A DNA stretch of 64,000 nucleotides from a virus: the IMG/VR virus record IMGVR_UViG_3300035181_002074, positions 1 through 64,000 of that record, one strand, 5' to 3'. The stretch's first letter is position 1. Each line of letters begins with the position of its first letter. This document shows positions 11,001 through 59,514 of the stretch, piece after piece. The position numbers were made by a program, and so were the translations under genes. Below the pieces are notes generated by a model, which was not told the origin of the DNA, searched no databases, and saw nothing but the letters and a program-made list of their open reading frames with translations.

Positions 11001-11493
11001 AGCTAATAGCGCTGCAGCAATTTTCCAAAATAAATTGGCTTACCCAACTGAGATCCAATACGGTGTAGATTCTTATCGTTACTATAAAGGATTAGTAAAG
11101 CAGTTGAACAAGGTGATTTATGGAGACTCCTTCGATTCGATCAATTATCCGGGTGTTCGGGCTGCTGGCACTGCTATTGATATTAAGCCTGCTATCTTGA
11201 AAAGAATTACAGTTGCAATGTCGGTTCGCATCAAATCTGGTGTACCATTCATTGAATTACGTGATCGTATTAAAGCTGCTGTTGCTGGATACGTAAATTC
11301 ATTGAATGTTGGTGAGCAAGTAAGCTTGTCTAAGATCGTGGATGCTGCTGGTAAAATCAATGGAGTAACTTCCGTAGTAATTACTTCACCTGTTTATGAT
11401 ATCAGCAGCGATCTTATTTATGTTGGCCTCGACCAACGTGCCGCTATCACAGATGCAACTAATGACGTAACCGTTTCTATTTTAGGTAACTAA
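5095..11493 (+). CDS. Giant baseplate J-like (gp6) wedge protein with a large internal insertion
   Basis: N-terminal AIGDALQRLA, GTAGNV, NG..PDNDDTLRDRI and KGTEAAI motifs; C-terminal RAAGTAIDI...IKAAVAGYVNSLNVGEQVSLSKIV...INGVTSV; about 1700 aa of T/S/G-rich beta domains in between. Confidence 0.8.
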   Translation: MAETPKLRSPETIYGDLVDGFTSRARNVTDLSKQSVLNQLIKAVSESNFRAVADIIQSIDALNIDRAIGDALQRLARDRNVPILSGRYSSGRVDITDTTFTKIESAIFAGQPAPIGGSQVIYVADASKFTATGKLYIGRNTPNVEGPLDYISIASQGGGAYWAITLAPTSLTTKYHNVGEKVIFAQGGNRLINANAGVQTASGSSAEPITFKTTSNATIQDGETTVYNVPIVCNQIGTAGNVPKGSIRETVSLPFDSVANNSQPFTNGMAPDNDDTLRDRIKAYEQAKSKGTEAAIKVSAIDVVSDDDLKRVTSSNVIRYSDLSSALIFDDGTGYESIFNGVGLEKVIDKALGGETNLQLRQYPLTQARVINNVDGPFNINDGDTLDIDIQGVRKSHIFYSTDFKVQGAATVSEIVDSINSDPNFHAYATGAINTTRIALYPRERTQNEITVKSRSTIDANVHLGFPVNTEYTIRLYKNDIALYQDGLVAKVSTSPKANWVNTITAGDTLIYSVDNAPSITTTFTTDSFQAVSLTSSVSSFTSIEIWAAVMNTLMAGCTATVNGDVIEIKSNLGQDTRASIYISGGTIYSKMFPANTVLAATGRSSDFNLNINTGQLELTEPLLAGDSIAAGSAFTRSKISTNSIPNGPTSVGNMWLVSDGNAKGIATGLRLNTTLYFEQYNANPDLLRLRGVSATLTPEGFTSVQVGDWILVWAEAADAMLYPTMYANRGYWRVEQIDNGIVVRIGGNFTPTYGFEYGLPLDRIAVVRSTAPVQHLNYPVSTIGGFINTIKSQMVGIDAEAVGSTVRISTQTSGSAGELFVIAADAGARSLGFASSTIVDNITSHYGFAANQDAEAGTPLFTHSAFGTKTSATEFQETNYVALGGHLDNFAELLNNYETSPLQELPDSNKSRRVLTEDYIGSNVTLKIPPYMANTESPIQASDRYFLRESYQFDANDQVTFIVDGDNNTKTYNTPTSRKIKVNSHSTPSLQDFSASDTESTLALEDPSSFNTFDFTDFKVWRKAGILLSDGSLSIKFNSADFGPAGNSLRVGYVYPTSRTQTSLSYNTINNETGAIGITLPVTLSRTANWDGTTSFTTDVVTTGGRDAVTYTYRVGTAPSLSIGAGVTNGDIAMLDPTSNFLSSNKDFSAKVSAVTPTTFTINRPTGTATSDNVIFSSMINQAGVTTVTSTTSHGITTGDRIGIWNTAAVSGITKPFETTYFPTVTSPNTFTIPTPVTAPTGTIISTTHAGNIVTVTSTAHGLQAGNIVIISNVATAVNGTHPVSNILNANQFQYVVIGSSSPPTGGQFDFQSYAADGTTSQSITSVTKSGYTVTVFDNNNLVTNDLVQITGAVWDAYVVLTTYGIGDMVRYSGIDYVSLVSGNTSNQPNTSPAQWAISSLTLNGNYVVSSAVAGVSFTFTTSFGGNGSSTGTGTAAKMTTAGKLARSIGSSEAKLQFAQVQSTAQDVLTFVSTSMAGVLQADLVTGSLGDLINTSTADNGIGTNYYSVTALNISGTISSNLINITVNGNIAAGSDIILNSSSHAAYNDSYVVLDSVQSGLNYILTLRTAINSTTTFSAAMTGGTVRGTNAYSMFKDGENWVKSSDLQSLPTLPQFSLKRAWSTAPAIDEEIRVIATTNDHLARFWNILSVTGLSNVATINNSEYGRQLQVRTKTFGASGSIQVAGGSATAGQIALIGAGKEQDTTTGSFVIPYEARKGLNSRSWVKLTQTVRQNKSLGFSGTTVIQTFNDGLQITGGTGSFQTLRATTQATGTTIKVERHGDYVAYIGIDGASMGLLSNSTQFVREGDWVKIRNTVSVPFTPSNCGIFQVVRVFGNGTFWIENDLAVDEIVTLTASTEMAFYSYDSVMPDDTLIIAGNILDPLNVGRYLVIDETSAGAFFPTSTRIYTKPIPITHAPTVLGDSFLQVNVEEYKPLSLLKRIVTIAPSSAGYANVIVDSSNLMNKMSSANSAAAIFQNKLAYPTEIQYGVDSYRYYKGLVKQLNKVIYGDSFDSINYPGVRAAGTAIDIKPAILKRITVAMSVRIKSGVPFIELRDRIKAAVAGYVNSLNVGEQVSLSKIVDAAGKINGVTSVVITSPVYDISSDLIYVGLDQRAAITDATNDVTVSILGN

Positions 11494-12863
11494 TATCGTA
11501 TTCTTTGCTTTGTTTAGGCAACAGTTCCGGTATTTGATAAATAGCTGGTTCCCATATAACCCACCAGCCACTGTTGTAAATAGTTAGTACCCATCTATTC
11601 ATAACGGATATACCAAGTTTTATAATCACCTTTATCAACATGATAAGTTTGTTTTGACCAAGACGTTTGGTCACACAAGATTGTCCAGCCTTCTGGATAA
11701 ATTCTTTTGTTGCATATCACTAAAATATACTTACCCTTCATAATCAATATGCCATGCCTTTTTATCTATGTCATCCAATATCAGTTTATCCACATGCCAC
11801 GGTTCACCATCATTTAATAAACACCAGTAATCTTTTTCGGCAATAAGCAGCAGGGAGAATGGCTCATTAAAATTAACATAATGATTAGTCATGATAATAC
11901 GATCCTGTAAATTTTTGATTCAATTGATAGTATATGGAGTGTAAGCGGTACGGCCGTAGGCATTATCCTGAACTTCATTCTAAGTGGTATGTTCCATGCA
12001 GCCACGATAAAATATCCGTTAATCATACTCCACACTAATAACTTTCAGTTCGTCCGGTAATGGATGACCCCATATTGATGGAAAACTACCACCTTCCAGC
12101 TCCACGAAAAAATATTCCAAACTCTTGCGGACTATAATAAGGTAAGTCATTCATCTATCCAAATAATATATAGTTTATGCTCCTGCTCCAACATCTCTTG
12201 AATCATCCTGTCGTGACTTTTGTATGTCGCGGTAAAATACCCTATGGGGCAGTCAGCATCCGTCACGAAAGCAATGAGGTATCTATTCACCATAAATCAT
12301 CCATTCCTTAACTTGCGATGGCGGTAGATGTGTTACGTATGATGGCTCAACTGGCGACCAAACCCACCAAAACCCATCATATCGGGAAGTTAATCCATAT
12401 AATTTACGCATGTTCAACATAAACACTGTATTCCCTGTATTCATTATCTAGCAACGTATTGTCATTAAAACTAAACGATATCTGCGGCGTCTGATCTCTC
12501 CAAATATACCATGTGCCACCATCTACGAATGCAATGGAATAATAGTCAATCACTGTAATGTAACACCTTTGGAATCCCAGCCAGTAAGCCAAGCCTTAGT
12601 CGTTTCTTGGAACCAAGCAGCAGCTTCTTCTTGGGTTTTGAATTGATCTTTACCAGATCGAGCTACGATATTACCCTGACTGATGATTTCCCAAGTACGT
12701 GTAAACTGATCGTATTTGATTTCCATTATGTGTCTCCTGTTTCAATTATAAATTGTCTGACTGAGCTTGTGTAACGTATATCCCGCCAATACTTATCCAC
12801 GGAATGAAATTTAACATATACGTCATAAGTCTGCAAAGTTGGGAAATAGATTAAATAAGTCAC
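11477..12863 (-). other. Micro-ORF array A (9 members, 41-53 aa)
   Basis: Overlapping ORFs at 11477-11602, 11595-11741, 11731-11892, 11889-12026, 12019-12150, 12147-12293, 12283-12411, 12404-12553 (GTG) and 12726-12863 (GTG); e.g. MVNRYLIAFV...KLYIIWIDE, MKGKYILVI...KTWYIRYE. Confidence 0.8.
12550..12726 (-). CDS. Hypothetical protein, 58 aa (MEIKYDQFTRTWEII...), not a member of the micro-ORF family
   Basis: AGGAGA RBS; codon use resembles the structural genes. Confidence 0.7.
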   Translation of the reverse strand: MEIKYDQFTRTWEIISQGNIVARSGKDQFKTQEEAAAWFQETTKAWLTGWDSKGVTLQ

Positions 12864-14381: not shown

Positions 14382-14410
14382 AATATAACACTATTATACA
14401 GTTAAGTCAA
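14382..14410 (-). promoter_or_regulatory. sigma70-type early promoter
   Basis: TTGACT-17 bp-TATATT. Confidence 0.7.
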
Positions 14411-15453
14411 CCTGAATTAAATAGCGCATATATTCGGGGTCATTGATGTCTTTAGACTCATCGAAAATACCATACAATATGCTTCCGACTTTCACTATGT
14501 GGTAATTATTCATGCCATACCTCAATATCAATATAATGGGTATATGGCTCATTACATATTAACCAAAAGCTGGAAACCTTAAGCCAACAATCGGTATAGA
14601 CAGCTTTCTCGATTAAGTAATCTTTCATACTTCCTCCATTAATTCCACCGTGAGCCATAAATGACTGCCATTGTCGATAAACACCCATATGCGTGGAGCA
14701 GTCCCGTCAAATAGAGGCTCCCAGTCGCTGGGTGTAGCTATTATGAGTCTATAACTCTTCGATGATAATGCTATATTGTTCATAACTGAATTCCTTATCC
14801 GCAGTGAGATCGTCTATATAATATGTACAAATATATATATTGCCTTGTTTATCAAAAGAGTGTACTCGGCTGATGTGATAAGAATTCATAATGATATCTC
14901 CACATGAAACAGTAACTCATACGTATCTCGGTCGAAAATAATATAATGCCTTATATCCATCCAAGCATCACTGTGATACATGCCGTATGGTTTATACATA
15001 GACCACCACGCTAAAGTTATGATAGAATGCGTGGGTAGCGTATATGGTGTAATAGATTTGCTCCGTTTGTCCAAAGAAACCTAGACTGCGCGATGAGTAT
15101 ATTTTATATGGTTTCATCATTCCAAGGTCTTTCCATGTAGTATTCTTTATCGCCAAGATCATTTTCAATTGACCAGCACTCTTGAATTCCTTCAAACCAG
15201 TGGTACATGTAATAAAGCTTACCCATAAATGAAGTCTACCCAGTAATGTTTATTTTCTCCGCCGATCAGTATAAACCATGGTCTCTGCGCTTGAAAGTCG
15301 TCATCCCATTGAAAATGAGTGCGAATTGTATAATCAGTCATATGCTATCCGCCACATGTGCTGACCTATTTCACCTTCATGGATATGGAACCATATTAGA
15401 TCTGCTGCACAGTAAATTCTTACGTGCCTATCCATGAAAGTATCATTCTTCAT
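14394..15453 (-). other. Micro-ORF array B (9 members, 37-52 aa)
   Basis: 14394-14513, 14506-14628, 14625-14783, 14749-14889, 14886-14999, 14992-15120, 15104-15226, 15219-15341, 15334-15453; e.g. MNSYHISRV...QYSIIIEEL, MTDYTIRT...KHYWVDFIYG. Confidence 0.78.
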
Positions 15454-16708
15454 AGATCTTTTTTTTAGGGTTATTACTTATAAAATCCGCTAATTTAAAA
15501 CTGATTATACGATTTGCATCCAAGATCGTATCCTTTAGGCATAGACTTTGCCAAAATGTGGTCGGTTTGCCAGATTTATCTGAGTATATGCCATATAATC
15601 TCTGTCTACTTTGCTTGGATACTTCAGCCCATGCCTCAAATGACTTTGCTTCACCTTCGAATCCTTCTGTGCCGTCATGCAGTACGAAAACGGTATTCGG
15701 AGTTATTTCTCTTATGTCCCCAGCCTGAAAAATGGCTGTTGCGGTGCTAGCCACCATGCCAGTTCCAATTACATGGATTGGACAGGAACTACCCTTTAAT
15801 TTATCGTAAATGCTTAATCCATCCCACCAGTTACCGCCTTCACTCATTATTTTTACAAATATTGTCGCATGCGGATTAATATGTTCCATTATTTCTATGG
15901 CTCGGTTCACATTTGATGCCATTTCATTGTTAATTTCTCCAAAAATAAAAACAGTTCTGGTGTCGATATGATATCCATTAGTATATAATGTATCGAGGGC
16001 AATATTACGTTGCTCCTTAACAGCATGCATAGCTATTAGCATTTCAGATACCGTTAATTTATCTCCTTTAATAGAATTGCAAGAACCACAGCACGGCACT
16101 ACATTGTCTATTTTGTAGCCAATTTTTTTATCTAATATTATCCTATCCAATCCCGATCCCGATGGTGGCAAACTGCCCCCGCAATAAAAACAAGGTTTAC
16201 TTCTGAGAAGAGCAAATTCGGCTTTCGATATGTTCCATGGCATTTTGCGCTCAGAAGCTTGTCCTTTACCTGCATTAAATTGTACAGCTAAAGACGGTTG
16301 TCTTTTTTTAATTGGTCTTTTTTCTTTTGTTTTAACAAAACAAGCCGCACATAATGTGCCGGTATATTCAGCAGCACCAATTCGACCGCATCCCACACAA
16401 TCTTTACCCTTAATCGGATCTTTTATGATTGGCATTAAGGTGTCTAATAGTCCATTCGATACGCAAAATTTATACTTACCAGAGAATTTTTTTTTGAATT
16501 CCGATCGACTGCCGCATTCTTTTATGGCTTTTTTGAGACTATCGGTTGTGTAATCATGTTTAGTGGTCATATGTGCAAACAATTTGTTCCCTAGTTTAAG
16601 CTTGATAATAGCGGAGTATGCGCCGGAAGCCTGCGTTCGCATTTCGTGTCTAGTGGCGTACTTCTTAGATTCTTTGGTTAATGCCTCTTCTGTCCATTTT
16701 TTTTTCAT
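15443..16708 (-). CDS. HNH-type nuclease domain fused to a ClpP-family (S14) serine protease domain
   Basis: CFYCG...GLDRI...GY..DNVVPCCGSCNSIKG, then RTVFIFGEI...SEGG...GMVASTA...VLHD...KDTIL (Ser-His-Asp triad) in one uninterrupted frame. Confidence 0.85.
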   Translation of the reverse strand: MKKKWTEEALTKESKKYATRHEMRTQASGAYSAIIKLKLGNKLFAHMTTKHDYTTDSLKKAIKECGSRSEFKKKFSGKYKFCVSNGLLDTLMPIIKDPIKGKDCVGCGRIGAAEYTGTLCAACFVKTKEKRPIKKRQPSLAVQFNAGKGQASERKMPWNISKAEFALLRSKPCFYCGGSLPPSGSGLDRIILDKKIGYKIDNVVPCCGSCNSIKGDKLTVSEMLIAMHAVKEQRNIALDTLYTNGYHIDTRTVFIFGEINNEMASNVNRAIEIMEHINPHATIFVKIMSEGGNWWDGLSIYDKLKGSSCPIHVIGTGMVASTATAIFQAGDIREITPNTVFVLHDGTEGFEGEAKSFEAWAEVSKQSRQRLYGIYSDKSGKPTTFWQSLCLKDTILDANRIISFKLADFISNNPKKKIYEE

Positions 16709-18628: not shown

Positions 18629-18657
18629 AGTGTATCACTCTTTTTTTGTTTCGTCAA
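18629..18657 (-). promoter_or_regulatory. sigma70-type early promoter
   Basis: TTGACG-17 bp-TACACT, followed by an AAGGAG RBS. Confidence 0.7.
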
Positions 18658-19523
18658 CCTCTTTTAAAATTGCTATATTGTAGACGTGTGGGTCGAATAA
18701 CGTCGCTTGAAATGGATATTGGGCTTCTTCACCACCATCATCTATTATGTCATAGCTATTAGGCAGGATTATTATCCCGTAATTTCTAATTGGTGTCATT
18801 TAATTGGGCAATCAAAGCATCGGCGAGCCTTACAGCCATGATCGCCTTGCCTTTAGATTCATCGGCATTATTCGTATTATGTCCACCAGCAATAGCAGGA
18901 ACAACTAATCCTTGCATAATCAACGCAGCAAAATATTCTCTCTTGGTTAGGGCATCGCCCATTTGAGATTCTTGGTGGACTTTATCGTTTGGGTTTGTTT
19001 TCATATTTTTCTCCTATTGCTATATTGTAAATTTTTATGGATTTTTCGCCTTCTGGTGTATTAGTAAATGCATACGGGGTACTGGGGTTTCGTAACGTTT
19101 TATCGTCCGTTATTGGATAATAATAAGTTTTACTTACAATCATGATACCATAATTAAACAAAACTTTGAATTTAGTCATAAACCGCCAAGTTATATATCA
19201 CATTAAGCTCTGCCGCGATGCTGTCGTATAATAGTTCATCTATATTACTGAAATTTATTTGGACATGGGGATTCATTCCACCGTCATTCACTATATGAAA
19301 ACCTGCAGAGCGGATTGCAACCGCATAATTGAATGTAACTTTACTCTTCGCCATTTATTATTACCCAATCCCCTAAGAAGGCGATGTTGTATATCTTTGC
19401 TGCTTTGTTGCTCATAGCCTGTCCAAATGATGTATCAGGATTGATACCGTCATCGGTAACCATAAGGTACGGTACTTCACGTCGATGATACATAATAATC
19501 CCGATGTTGAATACAACCTTCAT
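18635..19523 (-). other. Micro-ORF array C: four clear paralogs (NYG...DDG...IYNIA subfamily)
   Basis: 18635-18799, 18982-19179, 19172-19354 and 19341-19523 share (F)N[YI][GA][IV]...[DN]D[GK]...[IV]YN[IL]A; three also share an NP motif. Confidence 0.85.
18786..19004 (-). CDS. Conserved small phage protein (LTKREYFAA...QG...AVRLADALI type)
   Basis: Recognisable motif of a widespread phage hypothetical family; AGGAG RBS. Confidence 0.65.
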   Translation of the reverse strand: MKTNPNDKVHQESQMGDALTKREYFAALIMQGLVVPAIAGGHNTNNADESKGKAIMAVRLADALIAQLNDTN

Positions 19524-19687
19524 GCAGTTACCTGAGCCAACCAATACAATGGAGCCCCAATCCAACCAAATAAAGCCATAGACCAGAATTCATCTGATTT
19601 GCCTGCCACGACATAGTAATACATGTAAGTAAAACATGTGAGATAGTATGATAAATATACGGCACTGGCAATTAAAAAGGTCTTCAC
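19520..19687 (-). CDS. Small two-TM membrane protein (probable GTG start)
   Basis: GTG lies 7 nt downstream of the -10 box at 19695-19700; hydrophobic sequence. Confidence 0.5.
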   Translation of the reverse strand: MKTFLIASAVYLSYYLTCFTYMYYYVVAGKSDEFWSMALFGWIGAPLYWLAQVTA

Positions 19688-19694
19688 TTGGGTT

Positions 19695-19723
19695 AGTGTA
19701 TCATTCATAGACAATAATGTCAA
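19695..19723 (-). promoter_or_regulatory. sigma70-type early promoter
   Basis: TTGACA-17 bp-TACACT. Confidence 0.65.
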
Positions 19724-20218
19724 CCTGTTTTTGAATTGATCTGTGCCGCCCGATATTGTCCAAATCCTCCGACTTAAACCCAGTATAGATTTCCCATTTT
19801 CTACCATATATCGACCGCATCCAAAATACGACTTCTATTCGGTATTTAAACTTCATGGCAATATCCTTATGCTATATACCTTTTGTTCTGTTATTCCTGT
19901 AATCCATTCTGTCAGTGTCGCTATATTACGGGTGAAAATATGGTAGTTACTGTAACGATCCCATCTATACGCCTTTTTGCGAAATACATATATACCATAT
20001 TGGCAAATATTATTATTCATAAATCCTTATAAGCCATTCAGCCTTGCAATATGACAATTCACTTAGATTCGCATGTGGTACTTCTGTGCCCCATCGAGCA
20101 AGGTTCCAGCTACCGCCTTTCCAGTTGGTAATTGCAATAGTAACTAAATGGTTATTCATATGTTATTCGTAATGGTATGTTGGTCGAATAGAAATAGCAT
20201 AACGGTATAAAGGTTCCA

Positions 20219-20437
20219 TTATTCAAAATTCACGGTTAGGTAGTCATTGTATCCATTAGCAACCATTTCCTTAGCAGTAGCCAAGGCAGCTTTACCAGCT
20301 GGGGTGATCATATTCATTTCTTCCAACCATTGGGTCTCAGGTGTAACCAATCTCAAGTGCCCACGGCGTGGAGCAGATAATTCAGGGTTATTGTTAACGA
20401 TCAAAGTAAATTTTGGGGCTGGATTAGTTTGTTTCAT
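20219..20437 (-). CDS. Hypothetical early protein (start MKQTNPAPK)
   Basis: GAGG RBS and own promoter. Confidence 0.7.
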   Translation of the reverse strand: MKQTNPAPKFTLIVNNNPELSAPRRGHLRLVTPETQWLEEMNMITPAGKAALATAKEMVANGYNDYLTVNFE

Positions 20438-20453
20438 AGTGTACCTCATAAAT

Positions 20454-20482
20454 AGAATATCATCCTTTATCCGAAATGTCAA
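20454..20482 (-). promoter_or_regulatory. sigma70-type early promoter
   Basis: TTGACA-17 bp-TATTCT. Confidence 0.75.
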
Positions 20483-20815
20483 CATAAAAATTATATATTT
20501 TTGCTACCATGCTTTGAATAACCACATGCTTGTCGATTCGCGGGTGATATGGATGAGCTGAAACCCAATCCCCTATTAGATAGGTGCCGCTACGCGACCC
20601 AACATGACGTGCGTATCGTTTATTGTGCAAACTTATTTTATACCGCTGCGTTACTTTCATGGGTTAAAGCTCCACCGAGATTCTGTAATACTTAATAAGG
20701 GACATATCTTCTACATCAGCTCCTTTAGCCTCTATATCGAACACCGATTTCCAGCTATCGATCATATACGTAAACCGTTGAATTTTAATGCCGTAGCGCT
20801 GTGTGGTATAAAATA

Positions 20816-21031
20816 TCATTTCGTATCCGTGGTGCAAGCGTCGTCCATAGACGTACTGTTACCTGTAATAGTGTCCGTTACACTATAAGCATACTTACAG
20901 CCATTCACGAAACCGTTGGAACTACCTTTATGGTAAGCACCCCACATTAATCCACCGGTTAAGGCAGCGTCAAGTAAGCCAAGGGTTAAGAAGATATAAA
21001 AGCCTTTTTTGGTAAGAATTGGGTGGTTCAT
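20816..21031 (-). CDS. Small membrane protein, probably leaderless
   Basis: One TM segment; ATG lies 6 nt from the -10 box. Confidence 0.6.
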   Translation of the reverse strand: MNHPILTKKGFYIFLTLGLLDAALTGGLMWGAYHKGSSNGFVNGCKYAYSVTDTITGNSTSMDDACTTDTK

Positions 21032-24535: not shown

Positions 24536-24567
24536 CCTAATATTTTCATTAAGGAATCCCTCACATG
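24536..24567 (+). promoter_or_regulatory. Late promoter motif plus leader/RBS
   Basis: Near-identical to 5065-5097. Confidence 0.75.
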
Positions 24568-27500: not shown

Positions 27501-29118
27501 TCAAACAGGTGCTTACCAAGAATCACAAGTCTTAGCAGTAGGCAGCAATGCAGCTGACAAGGATAACAGAACTAGACAAGTTACATTTGATTCTGCACCT
27601 GAATTAGATTTCCAAGCTGGCGACAAGATCGTTAAGACTGTTGGATTAACTCATTACAGTTATTTAATCAAGCATGTTATCACTTCTCGTACAGTGATCA
27701 TGGCTGATGATATTTCTACATTAGCTGCTGGTGATACGGTAACATATTACAGAGTGAATCATAATATCAACGATTCAGATAATCTTACATTGGCTATCCG
27801 TAAAGAAGATCGTGATCTAGCTAAAGTAAATACTGCTTTAACTCGCCCGATCTATGACGAAACAGTTTACTTGCAAAAGATGAACGTAACTGGATCTGGC
27901 TTCATTAAGTCTGGTTCATACATTTACAAAGGCACACAAGATCAACCGACTGCTTTAGCATGGGTACTCCATGGAACTAGCAATCAAACTGAAACTATCG
28001 AAGGATTCGGTATCAGTATGCCGGGTAGTAAATTTGGCGCATCATCCATTTTAGTGCATATCCTCAGTGGGACATTCTCCCATGGTGATAGTGTTTACCA
28101 AAATGGCGCATCTACTTATACCATCAATAACGTTGGTAACCCAGCTTTCCCAAGCCCAGCGATCTTAGCTGCTAGCAATGTGGAAATCGTATTACCACCA
28201 AACAGACGTACCCAAGTTGTTGGGTCAAGTTATGTGGTATGGCCAACTAACTGTGCATACAAAGCTTCCTTAGATGATAATTTATGTGGTGAAGAACTAT
28301 TAGTTATTGCCAATGATTCTATCCGCCAAGCTAACTTGGATTACTCCGAGACATATGGTGGACCGAAGGGTAAGATTGAAATATCCCGTAACTTACCAAT
28401 CAACACTCGTTTACGTTTCCGTATCTTGCCAGCTTATGGCTCTGCTAATGTTAGCTCATCCAGTTCTACTAGTTTACAATTAGCTTATGACGGTGGCAAT
28501 ATCGTTTCCATCTTATCTGGTCGTCCAATCGATGTCCGCGTAAGTGATAGAACAACTGGTATTGCACTAGACGGTACATTAAGTATTGATGCAGTTTACA
28601 GCGGTAATGTAGTTGGTGGTATCATGCCTAAGACTGATCGCAGTTTCGACATTGGTACTGAAGCACTGAAGGTTAATCAGATTTGGACAGCAATCCAAAA
28701 CATTAAAACTCATACAACTCATCCATCATCTGGTAACACTAAGTTTACCGCTGTGGGTACATCTACTAATAACTCTGCTTACATTATCCCATCATCCAAT
28801 ATTACTTTGGCGCAAGGTGAAGCAATGCAAGTTGTGGTGACTGGTGTGGCTCGCCGTTCAGAAGGTGTTGCGACGCCAACTACTCAAGGGTCTGCGTCCT
28901 TCAGAATAGAAGGTTGCTTTTACCGTGAAACAGCTGGTAGCACCCAAGCTGCTGGGAGTCCATACAATCTGGTTAGTGGTGCTTACGGTGACGGTATAAG
29001 TTACGCCCTTACATTTGGTACTGTAGGTAATGATGTGGTAGCCGTTGCCTTTGGTGAGAGTGCTGCTATTGAGTGGGCGATCAGTGTAGAATATCAAAAA
29101 GTTCGCCTTCCTAGCTAA
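24565..29118 (+). CDS. Large baseplate / tail-fibre attachment structural protein
   Basis: 1517 aa, T/S/G/N-rich; tandem H[GN]F..GD.....GLACTTN.P.G repeats; preceded by the late motif. Confidence 0.6.
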   Translation: MAVKRRLKLFSSARLDIPHLRSTESGVASDFDSALRGLVTGLNQPYVIRGFDLVIPNAAIPATSLEIKVSDSAVLHATAAEAGTILSVAAGTVNEILSPTNTKVFGAFQNGVANYVSLAYRRRTDPTTVDQVAGWSESQKIEYQRSVPTGDILEYQFVISTSGFSTNLPLYIVGTTSTGAVQYATKAAPNLFRLGRGGAVPDPYYTFNYHNQNNNSQSPSQPRREWINNSPSLTPNPVTVSPGDPTSAFQYGDFNIANMKEWMDAIMSRFKELTGSTYWYLDSALSAGSPNLFDTWYDSLGSVMTGSGSISYNLVLEAAQPTFGEFQSFFTDSEILAGDSYVVGQTSGNRANISAFNANQLIINSMLRQNFIANETLYNRRLYRPDLVKFDLYNTADALAANKIGVLRRKANGSGTPQSISSWSYTQIGSLSAADCTANFGSAHGFNVGDYAFFSGLACTTNQPSGVYMIKEVPTSTSCVFSVSYLPTGAATVSSATAALDTATHHPYLPTFVVQSWSYVGTAIKVQALGHNFLTGDKITIGGLACTTNAPNGRFTVTVNPDNSINFTATAPTGTATVSSAFVQANTAAFQLTVSGTNPNNYDVIDVVATAASDTDFNYVIGAISLPTIPVGTGAITLDGVVAVSSVLDPTIVSSITWNGTAIVVNTATPHGYASIAGPTDFTIYGNQSLSAYITTYSGVSIVNISSNVFQITGGNVANHGTYTNGGSDLTYARYPNNPYAGPIQWDSDMIIKGIIGDKYMRIPQTATATGTQLANKFNINGLTGTAYLQDGEVAYIIMERNKLLANGASYSTAGGSAQVTGSTSPTYVGGTRLRVGDFVKWEDESEASWLRVSNQGYPSLNEGDQLPSLATNFYLVTDNGQPPTSSQRPAKTGRMVYTRGTYQEVIVSKHWQVTQSADIYWIAVRRDNGALKSKVYLKALELELGEVRQINDNAPSNLLTYTGAGSEAAINPNYSVIDQTGAYQESQVLAVGSNAADKDNRTRQVTFDSAPELDFQAGDKIVKTVGLTHYSYLIKHVITSRTVIMADDISTLAAGDTVTYYRVNHNINDSDNLTLAIRKEDRDLAKVNTALTRPIYDETVYLQKMNVTGSGFIKSGSYIYKGTQDQPTALAWVLHGTSNQTETIEGFGISMPGSKFGASSILVHILSGTFSHGDSVYQNGASTYTINNVGNPAFPSPAILAASNVEIVLPPNRRTQVVGSSYVVWPTNCAYKASLDDNLCGEELLVIANDSIRQANLDYSETYGGPKGKIEISRNLPINTRLRFRILPAYGSANVSSSSSTSLQLAYDGGNIVSILSGRPIDVRVSDRTTGIALDGTLSIDAVYSGNVVGGIMPKTDRSFDIGTEALKVNQIWTAIQNIKTHTTHPSSGNTKFTAVGTSTNNSAYIIPSSNITLAQGEAMQVVVTGVARRSEGVATPTTQGSASFRIEGCFYRETAGSTQAAGSPYNLVSGAYGDGISYALTFGTVGNDVVAVAFGESAAIEWAISVEYQKVRLPS

Positions 29119-32100
29119 TATTAATATAATAGAGTTTCGTGATTGAGCCATCAAACTCGAATTGAGTTTCTGGGTAATTGATCTGCTGATGTCTCCATTT
29201 CATTACTTTAAATCCCCAGCCCCACATCTTAATACGATACTTGCTATAAGTTACCATTCAATTTGCTCCCCAATATTAATATAGTAAACCTTTCGTGCAG
29301 CCGTGAAGGTATGGAACACGGCATTGATCATATTAGCTTCATTATCATCGTATGCAGTAAAGCGTAATATCAATCCATTTTTACGGATAATTATCCTGTA
29401 CTTATTCATAGCGTATATTCCAAGCTTTGTAGATGTTGTATACAACCATATCTCCAGCGGTTATGTATATGTCTAATCTCCCCCAGTTTGGCATAACAAC
29501 GTCACCACCACGATATTGTATCACTGAATAGCTATTCATAATTCATGATCCACGCTTTCTGGATACTATTTAACTTCATGTCATAGAAGTTTGGTGAATG
29601 GAGCCGAAAACTAAAATGCTTGACCATGTGGTGACCCCATGAGTATTGACACACGTAATAAGATCTAATCATAAGTAAATCCTATATACCACTCTAATTG
29701 GTGCATAAATTGTTGGCTCACCTTCTAGGTGTCTTGGCCATTTCGTAATAAACCAGCAGTGATGTCGCACTACGAGAGAGTATTGCTTAATCATAATTGA
29801 TTACCCATGTGCGTTTTATTTGATATTTTCGCATTCCGTCCTCACCGAAGTAAATGTTCGGGCTAAGCCAGCTATTCACATTGATTAAACCGGAATCAAA
29901 TTCTGCAACGGAATAAGCTCTAATCATTCTAAAACCTCCACCTGTAGGCAACGTTTAGCATATTGATATTCATATAATGCCCTTGCTGGCTGCCAAGCGG
30001 GATTCTTTTCAATCCAACGAGACTCGCCCAAGAATATTAATATTCTGTAAATGCTTAAGTGTATATCTGAATTACCCATAACTTGGTCTCCCTTGGATGC
30101 ATTGGCGTTGGGTCATCTTCCCTGTAATCATAAAGCTTAAACAAAGTGTCGATCCACACAATCGCGTAGTATTGCACATCATGCATGGTGATCATCCTTT
30201 GGGCGAAATGTTATCTCATACAATTTCAACGGGCAACCTTGCAGCAATTGCCATGCAATGTTATCCTTGATCGCCCAGCCATTTGGGTATATCCATACGC
30301 GGTAAAAAATTGGCGTCCTTGTTACCATACTCCCTCTGTACCAATATTGATGTAATACACCTTCACATCGTCACCATACAAGACAAACGCTACCTCCGGC
30401 TGGTTCGAAGTATTAATATCAAACCTGACGATACGTGATGCCCCATTATGATAGCAGATGCGGTATTTCCTGTGAATCATTCCATCACCACCGTGTAAAA
30501 GACTACTTCATCTTTGCGCATATGGCGAACTGGCCTTGGTGTATGAGTCCAAGCACCAATCAGATACCGATTATTATGTATGTAAACACGGTAAAACTTA
30601 ATCTTCATAAGTCACCATCACTGAAAATAACGACATACCAACATAGAAGAAGCTTGGTGGACTCAATAAGCTACTATAACGATAGATACATTGGCCACCA
30701 ACAGGAAGGGGAAAAACACGATATGTTGCTGATTTAGTCATACTAACTCGATTCTCCAGCCCAATCTGTTTCCTCGTCCGCCATCAAGCAAGACTATTAC
30801 ATAAAGACAATTCAGTGAACTGTCGGAATAAGCTGGCTTGTAGATTCTATAATCCTTCATATATAATCTCTACCATAAAAATCGTGTGGATGTGATGCAT
30901 ATTGCGCAAAGTAATTTCTGGGTCATTGTATCCGAAACGAGTTCCACCTCGTTGCATGACAAAATTTCCTCGCCAAAATGGTTCATGACTGCATGCGATT
31001 CGGTATATCATTCAATCACCATCACATTATAGATCTTATTATGCAAGTCATACAAATTGATCGGCAAATTATAATATCCCTGATATTTAAAGATCGTCCA
31101 CCAACCACCTTGCTCGCAGTAAACATCGTCTTGCCTGTTAAATAGTATCACACGGTAATTCTTATACATATTCTATCTCTATCAACCATGCGTTCTCGGC
31201 GTCATCTACGAACCATAATAGATCTTGCGTATATCGGTGCAAATTCTCTGCATCGATGATATACCTTAACCTACTTATGCTCACGTAATCTGGGTAATCC
31301 ACAATCCTAAATATCATAATCCACCATCACATAGTAAGCTTTCTGGACTGGAAATTGCTCCATGAATATTGCTGGCGAGAAGAAATCAGCGAACACGACA
31401 GTATCCCCGCTTTGCCTATAACGAGAGGATACGATTGATACGCTAGCATCAAATAAGGCAACTCGGTAAGCTTGTTTTGGATATGACTTCATAAAATTTT
31501 AACCTCGAAATAGCGGCTAGTGGGGATAACACCTTGTGTAAACAGGCTATAAGTTTTACCAATGCCTTGTGACCCGAAGTCAATTAGCCGGTACCCTTTT
31601 TCTCGTTTGTACTTTTTCGCTTTAAAGATGATGTAATAAAATCTCATCCCAGCCCCCGAATCAAATAAACCTTCTCTGCGTCGGCTTTTAATAAATATTC
31701 TTGTCTAACGTGATAATCATACGACTGATGGATACGCAGTTCATTTGTAATTATGCACCAGTATACAGTAACGTAGCTCTCAGGAACAAAGAAGTCTATC
31801 ATCCGACCACCTCTATGGTAAATATCCTGCGCCCGTGTCCAGATTTTCCACTCAAAATAATCTCAGGGTTAATAAAAAAAGAAGCATACCGTGCAATAGC
31901 AATAGTATATGAGGCGCTCGCGTAGATTAAAATGCGGTAGACTACCCGATTAGGCTTCATAAGATATGTACCGCAATGATTTTGGCTACCTTATAATGTT
32001 TAGAGCCCCAATGAATGGAAATAGCATTCTCCAGTATATCCTCTGATGTATGCAAAACATATTTCCCCGTCGTGAAAGATATAATCCTGAAAGTCTTAAT

Positions 32101-32127
32101 CTGATGGCATTTATACGGTTTAATCAT
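29111..32127 (-). other. Micro-ORF array E (21 consecutive members, 40-61 aa)
   Basis: 29111-29257, 29251-29409, 29402-29539, 29532-29672, 29669-29794, 29787-29927, 29924-30079, 30055-30195, 30179-30328, 30322-30480, 30477-30608, 30598-30741, 30738-30860, 30847-31011, 31008-31169, 31162-31317, 31307-31492, 31489-31647, 31644-31802, 31799-31960, 31957-32127; every ORF overlaps the next. Confidence 0.85.
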
Positions 32128-32314
32128 GCTTATTCAACAGGGAATTCATTTTACCTGTTACGTAAGTATATGAATCAATCACTCCAACTACGTATCCGTA
32201 AACATACCAAAACACGCCCATGAAAGCTAGCTTACTGGCAATAGTCCAATCCGTTTCTTGTAGGAAGGTTAACGTAGCCCATGCACATATCAATGTTATT
32301 ATTATTCTTATCAT
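32120..32314 (-). CDS. Small two-TM membrane protein
   Basis: Hydrophobic MIRIIITLICAWATL...FMGVFWYVYGYVVGVI; start placed at the Met after an AAGGA RBS. Confidence 0.55.
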   Translation of the reverse strand: MIRIIITLICAWATLTFLQETDWTIASKLAFMGVFWYVYGYVVGVIDSYTYVTGKMNSLLNKHD

Positions 32315-32315
32315 A

Positions 32316-32639
32316 TTATTCCTTAGCCTCTTTGGCCGCTTTCTTTGCTGCTTTTTCAAGCTTAGCGTTTTCTTTCTCGATATCTTCTTGGGTTTGGAGT
32401 ACGGATTCGAAACGTTTCACACCGGCTGGCCTAAAAACTGTATTTTTCTCGGAGAAGTTATCCACGATGGACACGAAACGTGGGGTCGCTTCGTCAGTTG
32501 CGAATTTCTTATTACCAAAATACCCACATTGGGTAAATTCCACCGTCAAGGCATCAAGTTCTTCGTACAGAGGTTTTACAGCCTCAAGTTGGTCTTTGAT
32601 CTGAGCGATACGATTAACGATTTCATTTATACGTGACAT
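32316..32639 (-). CDS. Hypothetical coiled-coil early protein
   Basis: 107 aa, AAGGAG RBS, own promoter. Confidence 0.75.
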   Translation of the reverse strand: MSRINEIVNRIAQIKDQLEAVKPLYEELDALTVEFTQCGYFGNKKFATDEATPRFVSIVDNFSEKNTVFRPAGVKRFESVLQTQEDIEKENAKLEKAAKKAAKEAKE

Positions 32640-32651
32640 AATAAGTCTCCT

Positions 32652-35235
32652 TTAATTAGCATACCATTCTTTTTGATCCGAGTCAAGTACTATTTCAAAT
32701 CGTCGATGTTGTTGATGTTTATAGTAATTACACATGACCGTATAATACAGCTCTTCATGGTTATCAACGATTCTGATTTCATTACCATATCTGGGGATGT
32801 TAAAGAATATGCTGTACCTAGTCCTCATATCGGATCTCGATTTGATAGTGTCTTGGATAATCCATAAATGTTTGCCATATTACGTAGAAAGATGAGTTGC
32901 TAGCCCTGATTACATATTTTTCTTTATAACGATATGCGATGGTGTATTCGTGGATTTGTTTCATTCGATTGTTACCACAAATCGTACATCATATGTTGCC
33001 CATCGCTTTAATAAGTCAAGCCAACCATCACTATTATCCCATATATGGACTCCTTGACGATCATCAATATTGATTACATACATTGTAGGTTGATTCATAA
33101 GATATTAATCTGATAATGGTGATCACTGTTATTAAAGAGTTTCCAGATGACGTACATGTCTTCATTATCGTGACCTATCATGTAATTTAAAGTTAATAAA
33201 AGGATGGTGTATTCTTTTGGTGGCTTCATAAAAAATCAATCTGCCACATTTTATCAATCTTTCCTTGGACAAGGTCGATGTGCGCAGCGACCCAGTGTAA
33301 ATAATGTTCCAAGGCACTAATGTTCCAAGGCAATTTAGACCAAGGCGACTTATTATAAATACGATATGACCTAATCATTGATGGTGACCTCATAAATTTT
33401 GGTGCTAACTAAATGCAGAACTATGCTTCTATTAAACTCCACCCCTACTCCAGCTACATTCGTTTTGATGCTGCTCCATCTGGCACTGACTTTGCCACTT
33501 AGTATTGTCCATCTCGCTCCAATGCGTAAATAAATGCGGAATGATCTTTTATTCATACCACTCCACTTGCCAAACGATATACGGCGCGTCAGAAAGCTGC
33601 AAGCTATCTACCATAACATCATGAGACCCGCGAATAAATCCACCCATAAATATGGGGGATATGCTGTAGTATTTATGATTATATGTATGTACGATATGCC
33701 CACGAATGCGAACTGCACGTAGGTCTTGGTCATTCAAGCTCATCGACAATTACCTCCCAGAACTTGCGGTTATGTGAATGTACTTTGAATACAATTTCGG
33801 GGTTCATCCGATATACTCCACTGATTGACCAAATAGCCCAAGACACATTGTTTGTGATAACACGATAAGATCTACTCATACCATTCCACCTGCCAAATTC
33901 TAATCATAGGTTTATATAAGCAATCTGTCAACCTCATATGGCCAGTCCCAGAGAACTTGGTATATATTGACGACATGAAAAACTTGGTTCTCTTGTGTCT
34001 TTTATATTCCCTGATCCTTACTGCCCGTGTGTTTTTACTCATAAGTTATACCATAGATCGTTTGAACATTTTCAGAGCCTATTATAATATTTTTTTCGCG
34101 GAAAACCCCTAGCATGCTGTTGATCATATCATACTCCTTACCCCAAACACCAGATACTTGCACTAATGAATCGCTCACATATATTAAATATCCTTGCTTA
34201 TTCATTAACAATCTCGATTTCGTAGCCTCTATATATCCAATCAGATTTAAGTACGTGCGACTGCCTAATAATAAATGGATCTGGGTACCAGCCTTGGTAT
34301 ATTATTACCATGTTATCCGTAACGCTCATCATGTCGTAAATTCGCAAAACTTTATACATATTTTACTACCCAAATCTTTGTGATGAGTTGGCCGTTAAAA
34401 GTTAAAGGCACATATATATTGTTTAATTCTCTCACCCATAATACACCGATATCGCTGGTACCACTCCATGCAATGATTCCATGACTCTTAGCGCAGTTAT
34501 TAATGATGTATTGGGTAACTGGTTTATTCATAAGTAAACTCGTATAGTTTCCGAAACGTACTACCTAAGTGAATTGCCCTGTAATTTGCTATTGCGTCAA
34601 AATACCAGCCGAATCCCCATTCTCCATTGCGATAGATAATAACACCATGTGGCAACCTGTTACCCATAAGTTACCTCGACAGTGAAAATCTTGGTGTGGC
34701 GGGGTGACATTCTAGTTTCATCACCGAGATAAGCGAATTTACCTTCTTCGTCTAACGCGTAGATTTCGTAAGCACGATTCTTGTATAGGTATATGCGGGT
34801 AGATTTAATCATATCGCACCACATAGATCTTGATTCGATCATTCGCAGCTATGCTAAATACAGAGCCATCATATATATAACTGTGATATATTGTATACTC
34901 ATTACGACTTATCATCACACGATACTCGAAAGATGGTGGAATTTTATTCAAAGGTCACCGTCCATATACACTGAACCGGCAAACCTTTGGAAGTCAAAGG
35001 CTGTTTTATGAACGTATCAACCATGGACGCAGCTATTTCTGGGTATCCATCCCAGTGTTTGGCAGCATAGCCCGTGCCATTTGTATATACCATGTATGAT
35101 TTATTCATATTCTATCCTGTACCCGCGAGTTACATACGTATTAGTGAAATAATTGATGCTATAATAAAACATTCTATTCATTGAATAGTGGCCACTGCTT
35201 TTAATCCATATATCTTGCCAGAATCTAGTGTCCAC
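32652..35235 (-). other. Micro-ORF array F (17 consecutive members, 44-64 aa)
   Basis: 32652-32828, 32818-32964, 32961-33098, 33095-33229, 33226-33378, 33371-33556, 33549-33743, 33730-33879, 33872-34042, 34035-34205, 34198-34359, 34352-34531, 34524-34667, 34660-34812, 34805-34951 (TTG), 34944-35108, 35101-35235 (GTG). Confidence 0.85.
32658..32686 (-). promoter_or_regulatory. sigma70-type early promoter driving array E
   Basis: TTGACT-17 bp-TATGCT with TG extension. Confidence 0.75.
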
Positions 35236-35395
35236 AGCAACCACGGAAAGCCCAACAAAAAGCGACTGCCATCCCAATATTCATGACGGCAGATGGCCAA
35301 TTAGTTGGTGGCTCAGGTTTATCATTTTGGCAGGTATCACATTCGCAGTCACAACCATGGCAATTTTTCACACAATCACATTCTTGTTCACCCAT
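35225..35395 (-). CDS. Cys-rich metallothionein-like peptide (56 aa)
   Basis: MGEQECDCVKNCHGCDCECDTCQNDKPEPPTNWPSAVMNIGMAVAFCWAFRGCCGH; first ORF after the promoter at 35405-35433. Confidence 0.55.
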   Translation of the reverse strand: MGEQECDCVKNCHGCDCECDTCQNDKPEPPTNWPSAVMNIGMAVAFCWAFRGCCGH

Positions 35396-35404
35396 AATCT
35401 CTAA

Positions 35405-35433
35405 ACTATACCACTAAACCAGATCTAAGTCAA
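35405..35433 (-). promoter_or_regulatory. sigma70-type early promoter driving array F
   Basis: TTGACT-17 bp-TATAGT with TG extension. Confidence 0.8.
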
Positions 35434-35434
35434 G

Positions 35435-35443
35435 CCTAATATT
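35435..35443 (+). promoter_or_regulatory. Putative late promoter motif CCTAATATT
   Basis: 9 nt upstream of ATG 35453. Confidence 0.7.
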
Positions 35444-35452
35444 TTGCATTAG

Positions 35453-57798: not shown

Positions 57799-58130
57799 TT
57801 TTTCCGATCCAAAAAGTATTTATGAACAAGGTTAGCCGCCATTGGGTTATTCAACCGCATTTCCATGAGCATATCGTCCAAATTAATCAGTTCAGCACCG
57901 TCTACAATCCCTACATCGGGTTTACCTTCGCGCCAGATACCTTGGGCTGTCACCACAGTTCCCGTAGCTTCGTCCACTAATACGGTGCCACGTTTGGTCA
58001 CAACCTTAATAATCTGCGGCAGGGCGCCTTCTGCGGCCTTTGGGGAGCCTACAATAACGGCTTCACCTTTAGATAGTTTTTCTAGTAGATCATTAATTGC
58101 GCCAGTGGGTTTTTTAGTGGGTTTCTTCAT
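57795..58130 (-). CDS. Hypothetical protein
   Basis: Coupled ORF in the early operon; GAGG RBS. Confidence 0.6.
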   Translation of the reverse strand: MKKPTKKPTGAINDLLEKLSKGEAVIVGSPKAAEGALPQIIKVVTKRGTVLVDEATGTVVTAQGIWREGKPDVGIVDGAELINLDDMLMEMRLNNPMAANLVHKYFLDRKK

Positions 58131-58608
58131 ATTTTAATAATAACCTCTTTTTGTTCATCCGTCAACCAGATTTCATAGCATCTGGTCATTTCGTACTGCT
58201 TACGCAGCATATCGTCGGCATTAAATATAGGGTAATGCACGATTTCAAAAGGAACTTGGTACAGGTTTAAGTTGTATGATTCTATCCGATAACGGTATTG
58301 TGGCCTATCATTCATATGTCAACCTGATTTCGTATATTTTGACTATTATAAATGATGACATCCTATTATAATCATAAAACATAAGACTAGCTGCAGTAGC
58401 CGATGGTTTCCTTGGTATATAAAATCCCCCGTCCAGCATAATATCGACGCGATGATCTGGCATCATGGCATAACCTCAATCATCCAGCCTTTGACCATAG
58501 ATTGGGATACCATAAATGCTCCAGATAGATTAATGGTGGGATCTCTTTTAACAGTATACGTGCCAGTAAACATCACAACAATGCGCCAGTGATTTAATCC
58601 GTACCCCA

Positions 58609-58809
58609 TTATTTTTTCACCACATTTTTGGCTTCTAACCCCTTTGGGTTTTCATAAAGATCGAATTCAACTTTATCTCCGCAACTTAAAAGTTTGTAAC
58701 CCTTATCAACAATACTCGAAAAATGCACGAATGCACTTCTGCCATCTTCAAGCTTGATATATCCGTAACCTTTTTTAGCGTCAAACCAATCTACTACACC
58801 CGTTTGCAT
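58609..58809 (-). CDS. csp: Cold-shock domain protein
   Basis: GVVDWFDAKKGYGYI...AFVHFSSI...GYKLL..GDKVEFD....KGLEAKNV. Confidence 0.93.
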   Translation of the reverse strand: MQTGVVDWFDAKKGYGYIKLEDGRSAFVHFSSIVDKGYKLLSCGDKVEFDLYENPKGLEAKNVVKK

Positions 58810-59012
58810 TTCTTTTTACTTTCTTTAATTTCTAGGAAAAAACCCGCAACAAAATCGACCGGATTATACGGATCATGAGCCACCGATGTCGGGTCTAATA
58901 ACACTGCTTCCGGTGAGAATATCCACGAACTATCAACCAAGAGCCATTGCCCTTTTTGTCTATCTCTAAAAATCATGACCCTAATTTTTTCATTAAAATC
59001 TATTTCAGACAT
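58794..59012 (-). CDS. Hypothetical protein
   Basis: 72-aa coupled ORF. Confidence 0.5.
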   Translation of the reverse strand: MSEIDFNEKIRVMIFRDRQKGQWLLVDSSWIFSPEAVLLDPTSVAHDPYNPVDFVAGFFLEIKESKKKCKRV

Positions 59013-59265
59013 ATACGCGGTACACCTTCCTGTCGGCTGGCCAATATATTGGAATCTTATAGGAGTCTCGGATAATTGTGTAGGTTAATGCTCCTCTTTC
59101 ATAAAAATTAATAGCAATAAACAATTGATACTTAATCATAGATCATTATTAAATACATTTTTCGGTCAATTTCATATGGATCAAAAGTGTTTGACATGTC
59201 ATGTGGGTAAACTGGTGCAATCCTTTGAAAGTTTGGTCTCAGTGGAATGAAAATAGTTATAGTTA

Positions 59266-59514
59266 TCATTCTTTACCTTCAATATCATCATAGCCGTAAA
59301 ATTTTGATAGCGAGTCTATTTTATCCACTACTTCTTTGTTAAAGCCATAATATTCACCATAAAAGCATAAAACGGCGATCAATGGAATATGACTCACTAC
59401 TGCAATGTCGGTGGCAGTATTAGACCAATTAAAATTCTCTTTAGCTTTCTCTTTTTCAAAAATTCCTTTAATCCAGTGATAGTTTCCTCTGTATCTATTG
59501 ATGTCAATTTTCAT
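59266..59514 (-). CDS. Hypothetical protein (start MKIDINRY)
   Basis: Coupled ORF. Confidence 0.55.
   Translation of the reverse strand: MKIDINRYRGNYHWIKGIFEKEKAKENFNWSNTATDIAVVSHIPLIAVLCFYGEYYGFNKEVVDKIDSLSKFYGYDDIEGKE

Follow-up and report, generated by a model that had tools for sequence, protein, structure and literature searches.

The window analysed here comprises the first 64,000 nucleotides (nt) of IMG/VR record IMGVR_UViG_3300035181_002074, a 160,612-bp phage genome rated 99% complete; positions refer to this window unless stated otherwise. At 29111-35235, its minus strand carries an array of very small, overlapping genes, here termed micro-genes. Across that interval, 99.8% of bases lie under minus-strand open reading frames (ORFs) of at least 38 amino acids (aa), compared with 61% on the plus strand, and the best minus-strand chain consists of 38 micro-ORFs of 40-64 aa (median 50.5) plus two unrelated genes. 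ATG is the start codon in 36 of the 38. An earlier reading of the same DNA made without database searches (the sequence-only reading) had described a gap-free tiling of the minus strand by 38 overlapping ORFs of 40-64 aa and two unrelated genes, which this coverage bears out; one ORF of the chain is corrected to 30055-30195 in place of an alternative frame. Together with a first gene that is not a family member, the unit is laid out as follows.

35225-35395, minus strand: first gene of the unit, 56 aa, not a family member; no Pfam match
32652-35235, minus strand: upstream array half, in which 17 family micro-genes encode 44-64 aa each
32316-32639, minus strand: unrelated 107-aa gene with its own AGGAG ribosome-binding site (12-nt spacer); no Pfam match
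32120-32314, minus strand: unrelated 64-aa gene, hydrophobic and membrane-like; no Pfam match
29111-32127, minus strand: downstream array half, in which 21 family micro-genes encode 40-61 aa each

No intergenic DNA separates the micro-genes of the array, which overlap by 4-25 nt: 12 junctions share 4 nt (ATGA), 15 share 8 nt (ATGAnTAA) and nine share 7-25 nt. As a Shine-Dalgarno-like site of at least 4 nt was found in only about 14 of the 38, most micro-genes must presumably rely on termination-reinitiation for translation. Neither pseudogenised members nor frame breaks were found across the 6 kb of the array, and it contains no direct DNA repeat longer than 27 nt. The same sequence was assembled independently from an SRA run (a 42.6-kb contig) and a JGI metagenome, three datasets in all, hence the array is not an assembly artefact, and about half of its genes had already been called by ordinary gene callers in other assemblies of the same phage. 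Samples SRR11723144 and JGI 3300035180 contain this phage. Codon-usage frame scoring ranked the called frame best in 36 of 37 cases, a result that carries little weight and is partly trivial because the alternative frames hold stop codons. GC content at third codon positions was 0.41 in the micro-genes of 29111-35235 versus 0.31 in the long genes of the phage, and codon usage in the array was much less biased.

Conserved ends and variable middles

Motif discovery by Gibbs sampling on the full-length sequences of the 38 members recovered a C-terminal motif (C-motif), [KR]-x-[WYF]-x-[IV]-x-[IVY], with a log-likelihood ratio (LLR) of 291-305; controls made of shuffles or of fragments of the phage's large proteins reached 251-262, and off-strand ORFs scaled to 38 sequences reached 277. 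As placed by the sampler, this motif sits at most nine residues from the C-terminus in 33 of 38 members. With the C-motif masked, an N-terminal motif (N-motif), [YF]-[RSY]-[IV], was recovered within the first 10 residues of most members (LLR 253 versus 217-222). Alignment anchored on the N-motif delineated a conserved block of about 13 residues, beyond which positional signal vanished. Lysine or arginine occupied position -2 of this block in 47% of members (background 12%), tyrosine or phenylalanine position 0 in 81%, arginine +1 in 62% and isoleucine or valine +2 in 92%. Positions +3 to +5 were hydrophobic or aromatic, +6 to +8 formed a G/N/D/S turn (41-46% versus 21%), and +11 and +12 were I/V/L. 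The consensus of the N-block is K/R-x-[YF]-R-[IV]-hydrophobic-hydrophobic-aromatic, a G/N/D/S turn and I/V/L; that is, conservation at this end extends over a whole hairpin of about 13 residues, overlooked in the sequence-only reading. The C-block, with the consensus [KR]-x-[WYF]-x-[IV]-x-[IVYF], lies 25-47 residues from the N-motif. Once nine residues had been trimmed from each end, the mean local alignment score between middles (17.5) equalled that of shuffles (17.1), confirming the hypervariable core. In composition, too, the stretch between the two blocks is close to random.

Beyond the motifs, blastp detected full-length paralog pairs and clusters at E values of 1e-5 to 1e-7, namely the pairs starting at 33549/33872 and 32818/33095 and the clusters 29402/29532/29787 and 29111/29251/30322. 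Members at most three genes apart were more alike than distant members (permutation p=0.0045), which fits local tandem duplication. In leave-one-out scoring with a profile hidden Markov model (HMM), members scored a median of 8.8 bits versus 1.7 for shuffles, and 22 of 38 outscored all 50 of their own shuffles. Judged by motifs and profiles, the array genes are one real, if very loose, expanded paralog family. The earlier proposal of a single expanded family with fixed ends and hypervariable cores thus agrees with the Gibbs motifs, which beat their controls, and with middles that match shuffles.

Codon choice at the conserved positions was scrutinized as well. An overlap at a junction constrains at most the final two and the initial three residues of a protein, and the DNA upstream of the ATG holds less than 0.6 bit of information per position. 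Between paralog pairs, 74 of 138 identical residues were encoded by different codons; for example, in two genes that have RAVRIR...WQVEWYE in common, different codons encode 17 of the 26 identical residues. At conserved tyrosines, TAC (14) and TAT (13) were used almost equally, as were AAA and AAG (nine each) at conserved lysines; conserved arginines were distributed over CGT (7), CGC (6), AGG (4), CGA (3) and AGA (2), and isoleucine and valine over six codons. Such near-even use of synonymous codons indicates that selection acts on the protein. As far as codons can tell, the genes are translated, their end blocks are under purifying selection, and the duplications are old enough to have scrambled synonymous sites.

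No relative of the family was found beyond the phage. Searches of Pfam-A and PHROGs with all 38 members returned no family (best E values 0.013 and 0.05, respectively, from one member each), so the members were not assigned to many known families, and a profile search of the PDB gave nothing at E<=1. Against 5.8 billion protein clusters, the only matches were to the phage's own proteins. An exhaustive HMM search of 1.84 billion representatives returned, beyond the phage's own proteins, only tandem-repeat artefacts: four long profile matches were rejected because each is a perfect tandem repeat in translation, its score being a weak motif match added up over 7-9 copies. Neither the array nor a neighbouring 566-aa gene had a match in 50,697 cultured-phage records searched by megablast and tblastn. 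The sequence-only reading had not recognised a described family, and none emerged from Pfam, PHROGs, the PDB or the 5.8- and 1.84-billion-protein libraries. By these searches, the family is a phage-specific orphan.

Compared with the long proteins of the phage, the micro-proteins were enriched in tryptophan (3.1-fold), tyrosine (2.9-fold), arginine (1.8-fold), histidine (1.7-fold) and isoleucine (1.65-fold). The richness in W, Y, F and H noted earlier therefore holds for W, Y and H but not for phenylalanine (1.17-fold). Relative to random codons at the local base composition, 11 of the 20 amino acids fell within 10% of expectation, W and Y were at twice expectation, and cysteine (0.25-fold), leucine (0.53-fold) and serine (0.68-fold) were depleted. 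Protein surfaces were diverse, with isoelectric points of 4.2-11 and net charges of -6 to +9. AlphaFold2, run with the family alignment on two members, predicted all-beta structures for both. The model of 31011-31169 (predicted local distance difference test score, pLDDT, 66) has strands at residues 3-10, 23-28 and 45-51; that of 34663-34812 (pLDDT 69) has strands at 6-11, 14-20 and 26-31, leaving the conserved C-terminal segment unpaired. An N-terminal strand or hairpin recurs in both models, and the homodimer prediction score was 0.02, a value that weighs neither way on self-association. Fold searches with these modest-confidence models gave a best Z of 3.6 against 48,161 PDB representative chains, nothing at E<=0.001 in BFVD and only partial matches to larger proteins in the ESM Atlas, where a feature search also yielded no usable match.

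Promoter classes and turnover between sister phages

Two kinds of putative promoter meet at the head of the array. One is a sigma-70-like sequence on the minus strand; the other is CCTAATATTT, which was found in 15 copies in this phage and 12 in a sister phage, every one on the plus strand, compared with at most two in shuffles.

35405-35433, minus strand: sigma-70-like promoter TTGACT-N17-(TG)TATAGT, a consensus match whose end lies 9 nt ahead of the unit's first ATG
35435-35444, plus strand: CCTAATATTT, 18 nt upstream of a 215-aa gene
24536-24545, plus strand: CCTAATATTT, preceding the 1517-aa structural gene that delimits the other side of the array
2423, 5065, 21343, 24536 and 35435, plus strand: the copies of CCTAATATTT in the window; ten more lie in the remaining genome

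Given that its -10 element lies 9 nt before the ATG, the array mRNA is predicted to be leaderless or nearly so. Three further minus-strand units (21031, 143340 and 155976) have similar TTGACT-N17-TAnnnT sites, each 7-9 nt ahead of the initial ATG. Copies of CCTAATATTT are absent from the arrays and precede plus-strand genes, many of which are structural, by 18-194 nt; the 57-nt divergent spacer at 35396-35452 holds both CCTAATATTT on the plus strand and TTGACT-N17-TATAGT on the minus strand. From its distribution, CCTAATATTT looks like a phage-specific late promoter conserved across the clade. Its restriction to the plus strand places the arrays in a different promoter class from the structural genes, and it is reasonable to regard the array genes as probably early.

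In the flanking 1517-aa gene, the sister phage (L004, identical with G001; 159.8 kb) is 63% identical. Both phages have a collinear structural backbone, with the flanking 800-, 1517- and 215-aa genes in the same order, and micro-gene arrays occupy the same three slots. Slot sizes differ, spanning 0.5-23 kb overall: 10 kb in the window phage versus 3.8 kb in the sister, 0.5 versus 23 kb, and 6.3 versus 11.4 kb. The 23-kb slot of the sister holds about 106 minus-strand genes. By a crude gene caller, genes of at most 70 aa number 112 of 274 in the window phage and 177 of 345 in its sister. While 66 of 92 proteins longer than 150 aa had homologues in the sister phage (median identity 53%), as did 24 of 70 proteins of 71-150 aa, this was true of only 6 of 112 proteins of at most 70 aa, none of them from the 29111-35235 array. 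The sister-phage arrays are located as follows.

L004 14760-22562, minus strand, and G001 79.4-102.7 kb and 72.7-76.5 kb: sister-phage arrays (L013-L015)

In the orthologous slot, the sister's array follows a plan of its own, M-x-x-Y-x-W ... W ... F-x-F-E, with no profile similarity to the window family (hhalign probability 0.15%; cross-searches at shuffle level). Its arrays use the same junction types, but the window-family motif occurs at only 0-5% (at least 5 bits). A generic aromatic-x-hydrophobic-x-hydrophobic pattern in the last 12 residues was found in 39-43% of genes in the sister arrays versus 19-23% of shuffles, an approximately 2-fold enrichment, and in 3-7% of larger genes and of the small genes of the Myxococcus phage Mx1. 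A terminal beta-strand may therefore be a common requirement for micro-proteins of the clade. At the level of detectable homology, the content of micro-gene slots is shown to turn over almost completely between the sister phages; that the sister fills the same slots with different families had been overlooked in the sequence-only reading. Of the other relatives, L005 and L006 match the window at 100% identity, and a single base separates L008 from L004. In L007 and L009, relatives whose 1517-aa genes show 46% and 53% identity, no array follows that gene.

Possible role of the family and competing explanations

We favour, as the probable explanation, a single minus-strand operon of about 6.3 kb in a hyperplastic slot, carrying a tandemly expanded orphan family of small beta-proteins that may serve as a host-directed repertoire. 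On either side of the slot is a conserved plus-strand structural gene of the phage, which is uncultured and has a 160-kb genome, and the family grew by local tandem duplication, long enough ago for synonymous sites to be scrambled. Transcription would start at the host sigma-70-type promoter at 35433-35405, in a temporal class unlike that of the CCTAATATTT plus-strand genes, and ribosomes would move on to each next gene by terminating and reinitiating where ATGA and ATGAnTAA overlaps occur. The N-terminal hairpin and the C-terminal strand may pair as a small beta-sheet, closing the chain and presenting the variable middle, and the proteins together would form a diversified repertoire of small accessory proteins against host factors, acting in takeover or counter-defence. 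The binder-repertoire function itself is one that we infer.

Several observations weigh against this explanation. In the leave-one-out test, 16 of the 38 members scored no better than their own shuffles, so that about 40% are recognisable by the short motifs only, and single-sequence jackhmmer searches within the genome, from five seeds, found no paralog at E<1e-3. No closely related array variants occurred among the relatives examined, and amino-acid usage so near to random codons could also reflect weak constraint on the genes. Both structure models have pLDDT below 70 and contradict each other on the pairing of the C-terminal segment; the earlier idea that the two terminal strands form a fixed scaffold was accordingly not borne out. 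Fold searches with these models likewise gave no meaningful match among PDB representatives, the ESM Atlas or BFVD. As for transcription, the sequence-only reading had set all arrays behind sigma-70 early promoters. Overall, sigma-70-like sites in the region occur at chance level (32 versus 29 +/- 5.5), and the part of that claim that stays plausible is the TTGACT-N17-TAnnnT site at two unit heads in the window.

A neighbouring explanation, which we regard as possible but doubtful, is a scaffold-and-loop display library. Here, a selected minimal beta clamp made of the N-terminal hairpin and the C-terminal strand would carry near-random inserts of 15-35 residues and let them be made as stable mini-proteins. 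Tandem duplication and fast drift would supply new binders against host targets or defence systems, and the sister phages would have invented other clamps in the same slots.

The main rival to the binder-repertoire reading is a gene nursery, or neutral churn, in which duplication runs away in permissive slots and most members have little or no function, the conserved ends providing no more than a tiny protein requires for its production and for evading degradation, namely a collapsed beta core together with a translatable start and a coupled stop. Such a process would account for the 11 of 20 amino acids at random-codon composition, for middles inseparable from shuffles, for the retention of only 5% of micro-genes between sister phages in slots of 0.5-23 kb, and for the roughly 2-fold enrichment of a generic aromatic-x-hydrophobic-x-hydrophobic C-end even in the sister's unrelated families. 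It sits poorly, however, with 38 intact, gap-free ORFs despite synonymous sites that are saturated between paralogs, since this combination points to long-term maintenance of the frames and not to fresh duplicates. Unchecked churn would also be at odds with the lack of pseudogenised members or frame breaks in 6 kb, and phage genomes are under packaging-size pressure. We consider it unlikely.

It is improbable that the array genes are not one family at all but unrelated ORFans whose ends converged through the overlap junction, coupling signals and AT-rich codon usage. The 8-nt ATGAnTAA overlap does force [YHND]-[ED]-stop in one gene and then M-[NITS]-[KN] in the next, G is weakly enriched at -8 to -12, and the jackhmmer searches were negative. 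Yet the conserved positions lie outside the 4-8 overlapped bases and use all synonymous codons, including both arginine codon boxes. Full-length paralog pairs exist, the N-block reaches 13 residues inward, and the sister arrays share the junction types while carrying the motif at only 0-5% (at least 5 bits).

We likewise give little credence to assembly units, in which conserved edge strands would mediate homo- or hetero-oligomerisation, for example by beta-sheet extension between the products of neighbouring genes, to build a multi-subunit structure. Aromatic or aliphatic residues on both faces of the conserved strands and the unpaired C-terminal strand in one AlphaFold monomer model would suit this arrangement, and translational coupling is typical where products are needed in fixed ratios. 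The wide variation in charge and length, however, would be odd in a repetitive structure.

Finally, a library of precursor peptides like those of ribosomally synthesized and post-translationally modified peptides, or a target diversified by a retroelement, is scarcely credible: conserved and hypervariable parts in many small, aromatic-rich tandem genes do recall prochlorosin-type libraries, but the 99%-complete genome encodes no radical SAM enzyme (other maturase classes were not searched), cysteine is 4-fold depleted, conservation falls at both ends and not in a leader, and the genome has no match to RVT_1 (reverse transcriptase), no template/variable repeat pair and no repeat longer than 27 nt.

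Known systems, further arrays and neighbouring genes

Among published concepts, the ORFan cassettes of T4-type hyperplastic regions (PMC2839356) come nearest. Those regions are described as runs of small, non-essential, homologue-less genes in variable slots between core blocks, associated with sigma-70-like early promoters and differing in content from one related phage to another (Arbiol et al. 2010, PMC2839356; Comeau et al. 2014, PMC4122927). The boundary of each cassette is a promoter plus stem-loop (PeSL), an element through which shuffling takes place (PMC2839356, PMC4122927). Like these cassettes, the array lies in a variable slot between collinear core genes and its genes are without homologues beyond the phage. 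Unlike them, it lacks PeSL boundaries or repeated DNA elements, its genes overlap with no intergenic DNA, and most genes in its slot are paralogs of one family. The phage itself does not belong to the T4 type; among cultured phages, Myxococcus phage Mx1 (OR576727.2) is closest to it, with about 25% identity in the primase-helicase. Mx1 resembles it in having small minus-strand hypothetical genes interleaved with plus-strand structural genes and a Clp-protease-like gene. In contrast to the array, the small genes of Mx1 are mostly 50-200 aa long and separated by intergenic spacers, only 3% carry the terminal strand pattern, and no tiled arrays of 40-60-aa genes are annotated.

The inferred role of the array draws on a functional analogy with the host-takeover module of Bacillus phage SPO1, for which function has been shown. 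The SPO1 papers describe 26 contiguous early genes for small proteins, single members of which bind or inhibit ClpCP, RNA polymerase or HU (PMC6873191, PMC8208478, PMC8892312). That cluster is smaller than the array, the papers found treat its members singly and not as a paralog family, and neither terminal motifs nor overlap tiling were found described. A search of the literature found no described equivalent of the array, nor a description of any phage micro-protein paralog family this large. We consider this family and its size to be new.

Within the genome, the full-length profile was confined essentially to the main array, with 37 matches of at least 10 bits (training set included) versus one in shuffles. 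The C-motif extends to other minus-strand arrays of the window, against a background at the same threshold (at least 5 bits) of 3-5% of shuffles and 9% of other micro-ORFs.

11477-12863, minus strand: second array, about 10 micro-genes, 40% with the C-motif at 5 bits or more
14394-15453, minus strand: third array, 8 micro-genes, weak match to the family motif (17%)
18635-20819, minus strand: fourth array, about 10 micro-genes, 50% with the C-motif; includes an F-N-Y-x-I ... K-I-Y-N-I-A sub-family
58127-59269, minus strand: fifth array, about 7 micro-genes, 71% with the C-motif

About half of the approximately 33 micro-ORFs in these other arrays carry the C-motif, and about 50 family members can be demonstrated in place of the roughly 70 claimed by the sequence-only reading; the larger figure counts the micro-ORFs in arrays (38 plus about 33) and not family membership. 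If the proteins are functional, about a tenth of the genome and some 40% of crude gene calls are given to micro-genes, and one orphan family of about 50 paralogs dominates them. The locus offers a clean natural system for studying the origin and testing of new phage genes and the role of tiny early ORFans, because its selected end strands, random-looking middles and replacement in the sister phage contrast sharply. On the practical side, gene-calling length cut-offs hide about half of such micro-genes.

Four paralogs of 54-65 aa at 18635-19523 on the minus strand appear to vary the main plan: [FV]-N-[YI]-[GA]-[IV]-x-[IV] lies close to the start and K-I-Y-N-I-A-[IF] close to the end, where short acidic or basic tails follow. 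Beyond the window, at 110-118 kb, about 10 micro-genes form a cluster on the plus strand, and a few of them match the motifs (...HRLWNIQVYEG and ...KKWKISYAS, near 113 kb); these carriers indicate that the family is not restricted to the minus strand.

Among the genes adjoining or interrupting the array, the 107-aa gene is the only array gene with homologues elsewhere, at 46% identity in two unrelated phages of higher GC content (L002 and L003), which have no micro-gene arrays and nothing else in common with the window phage. The 56-aa first gene of the unit encodes an N-terminus rich in CxC and CxxC (8 cysteines in the first 22 residues) and a hydrophobic C-terminal segment ending in CC-G-H. 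At the opposite end, the last array gene is convergent with the 1517-aa plus-strand gene and overlaps its stop end by 8 nt. Amid the micro-gene arrays, a minus-strand gene at 15443-16708 encodes a 421-aa protein with an HNH/endonuclease VII-like region (residues about 120-225) and a ClpP/prohead-protease-like region (about 249-416), and its best match in Mx1 is the Clp-protease-like gene.

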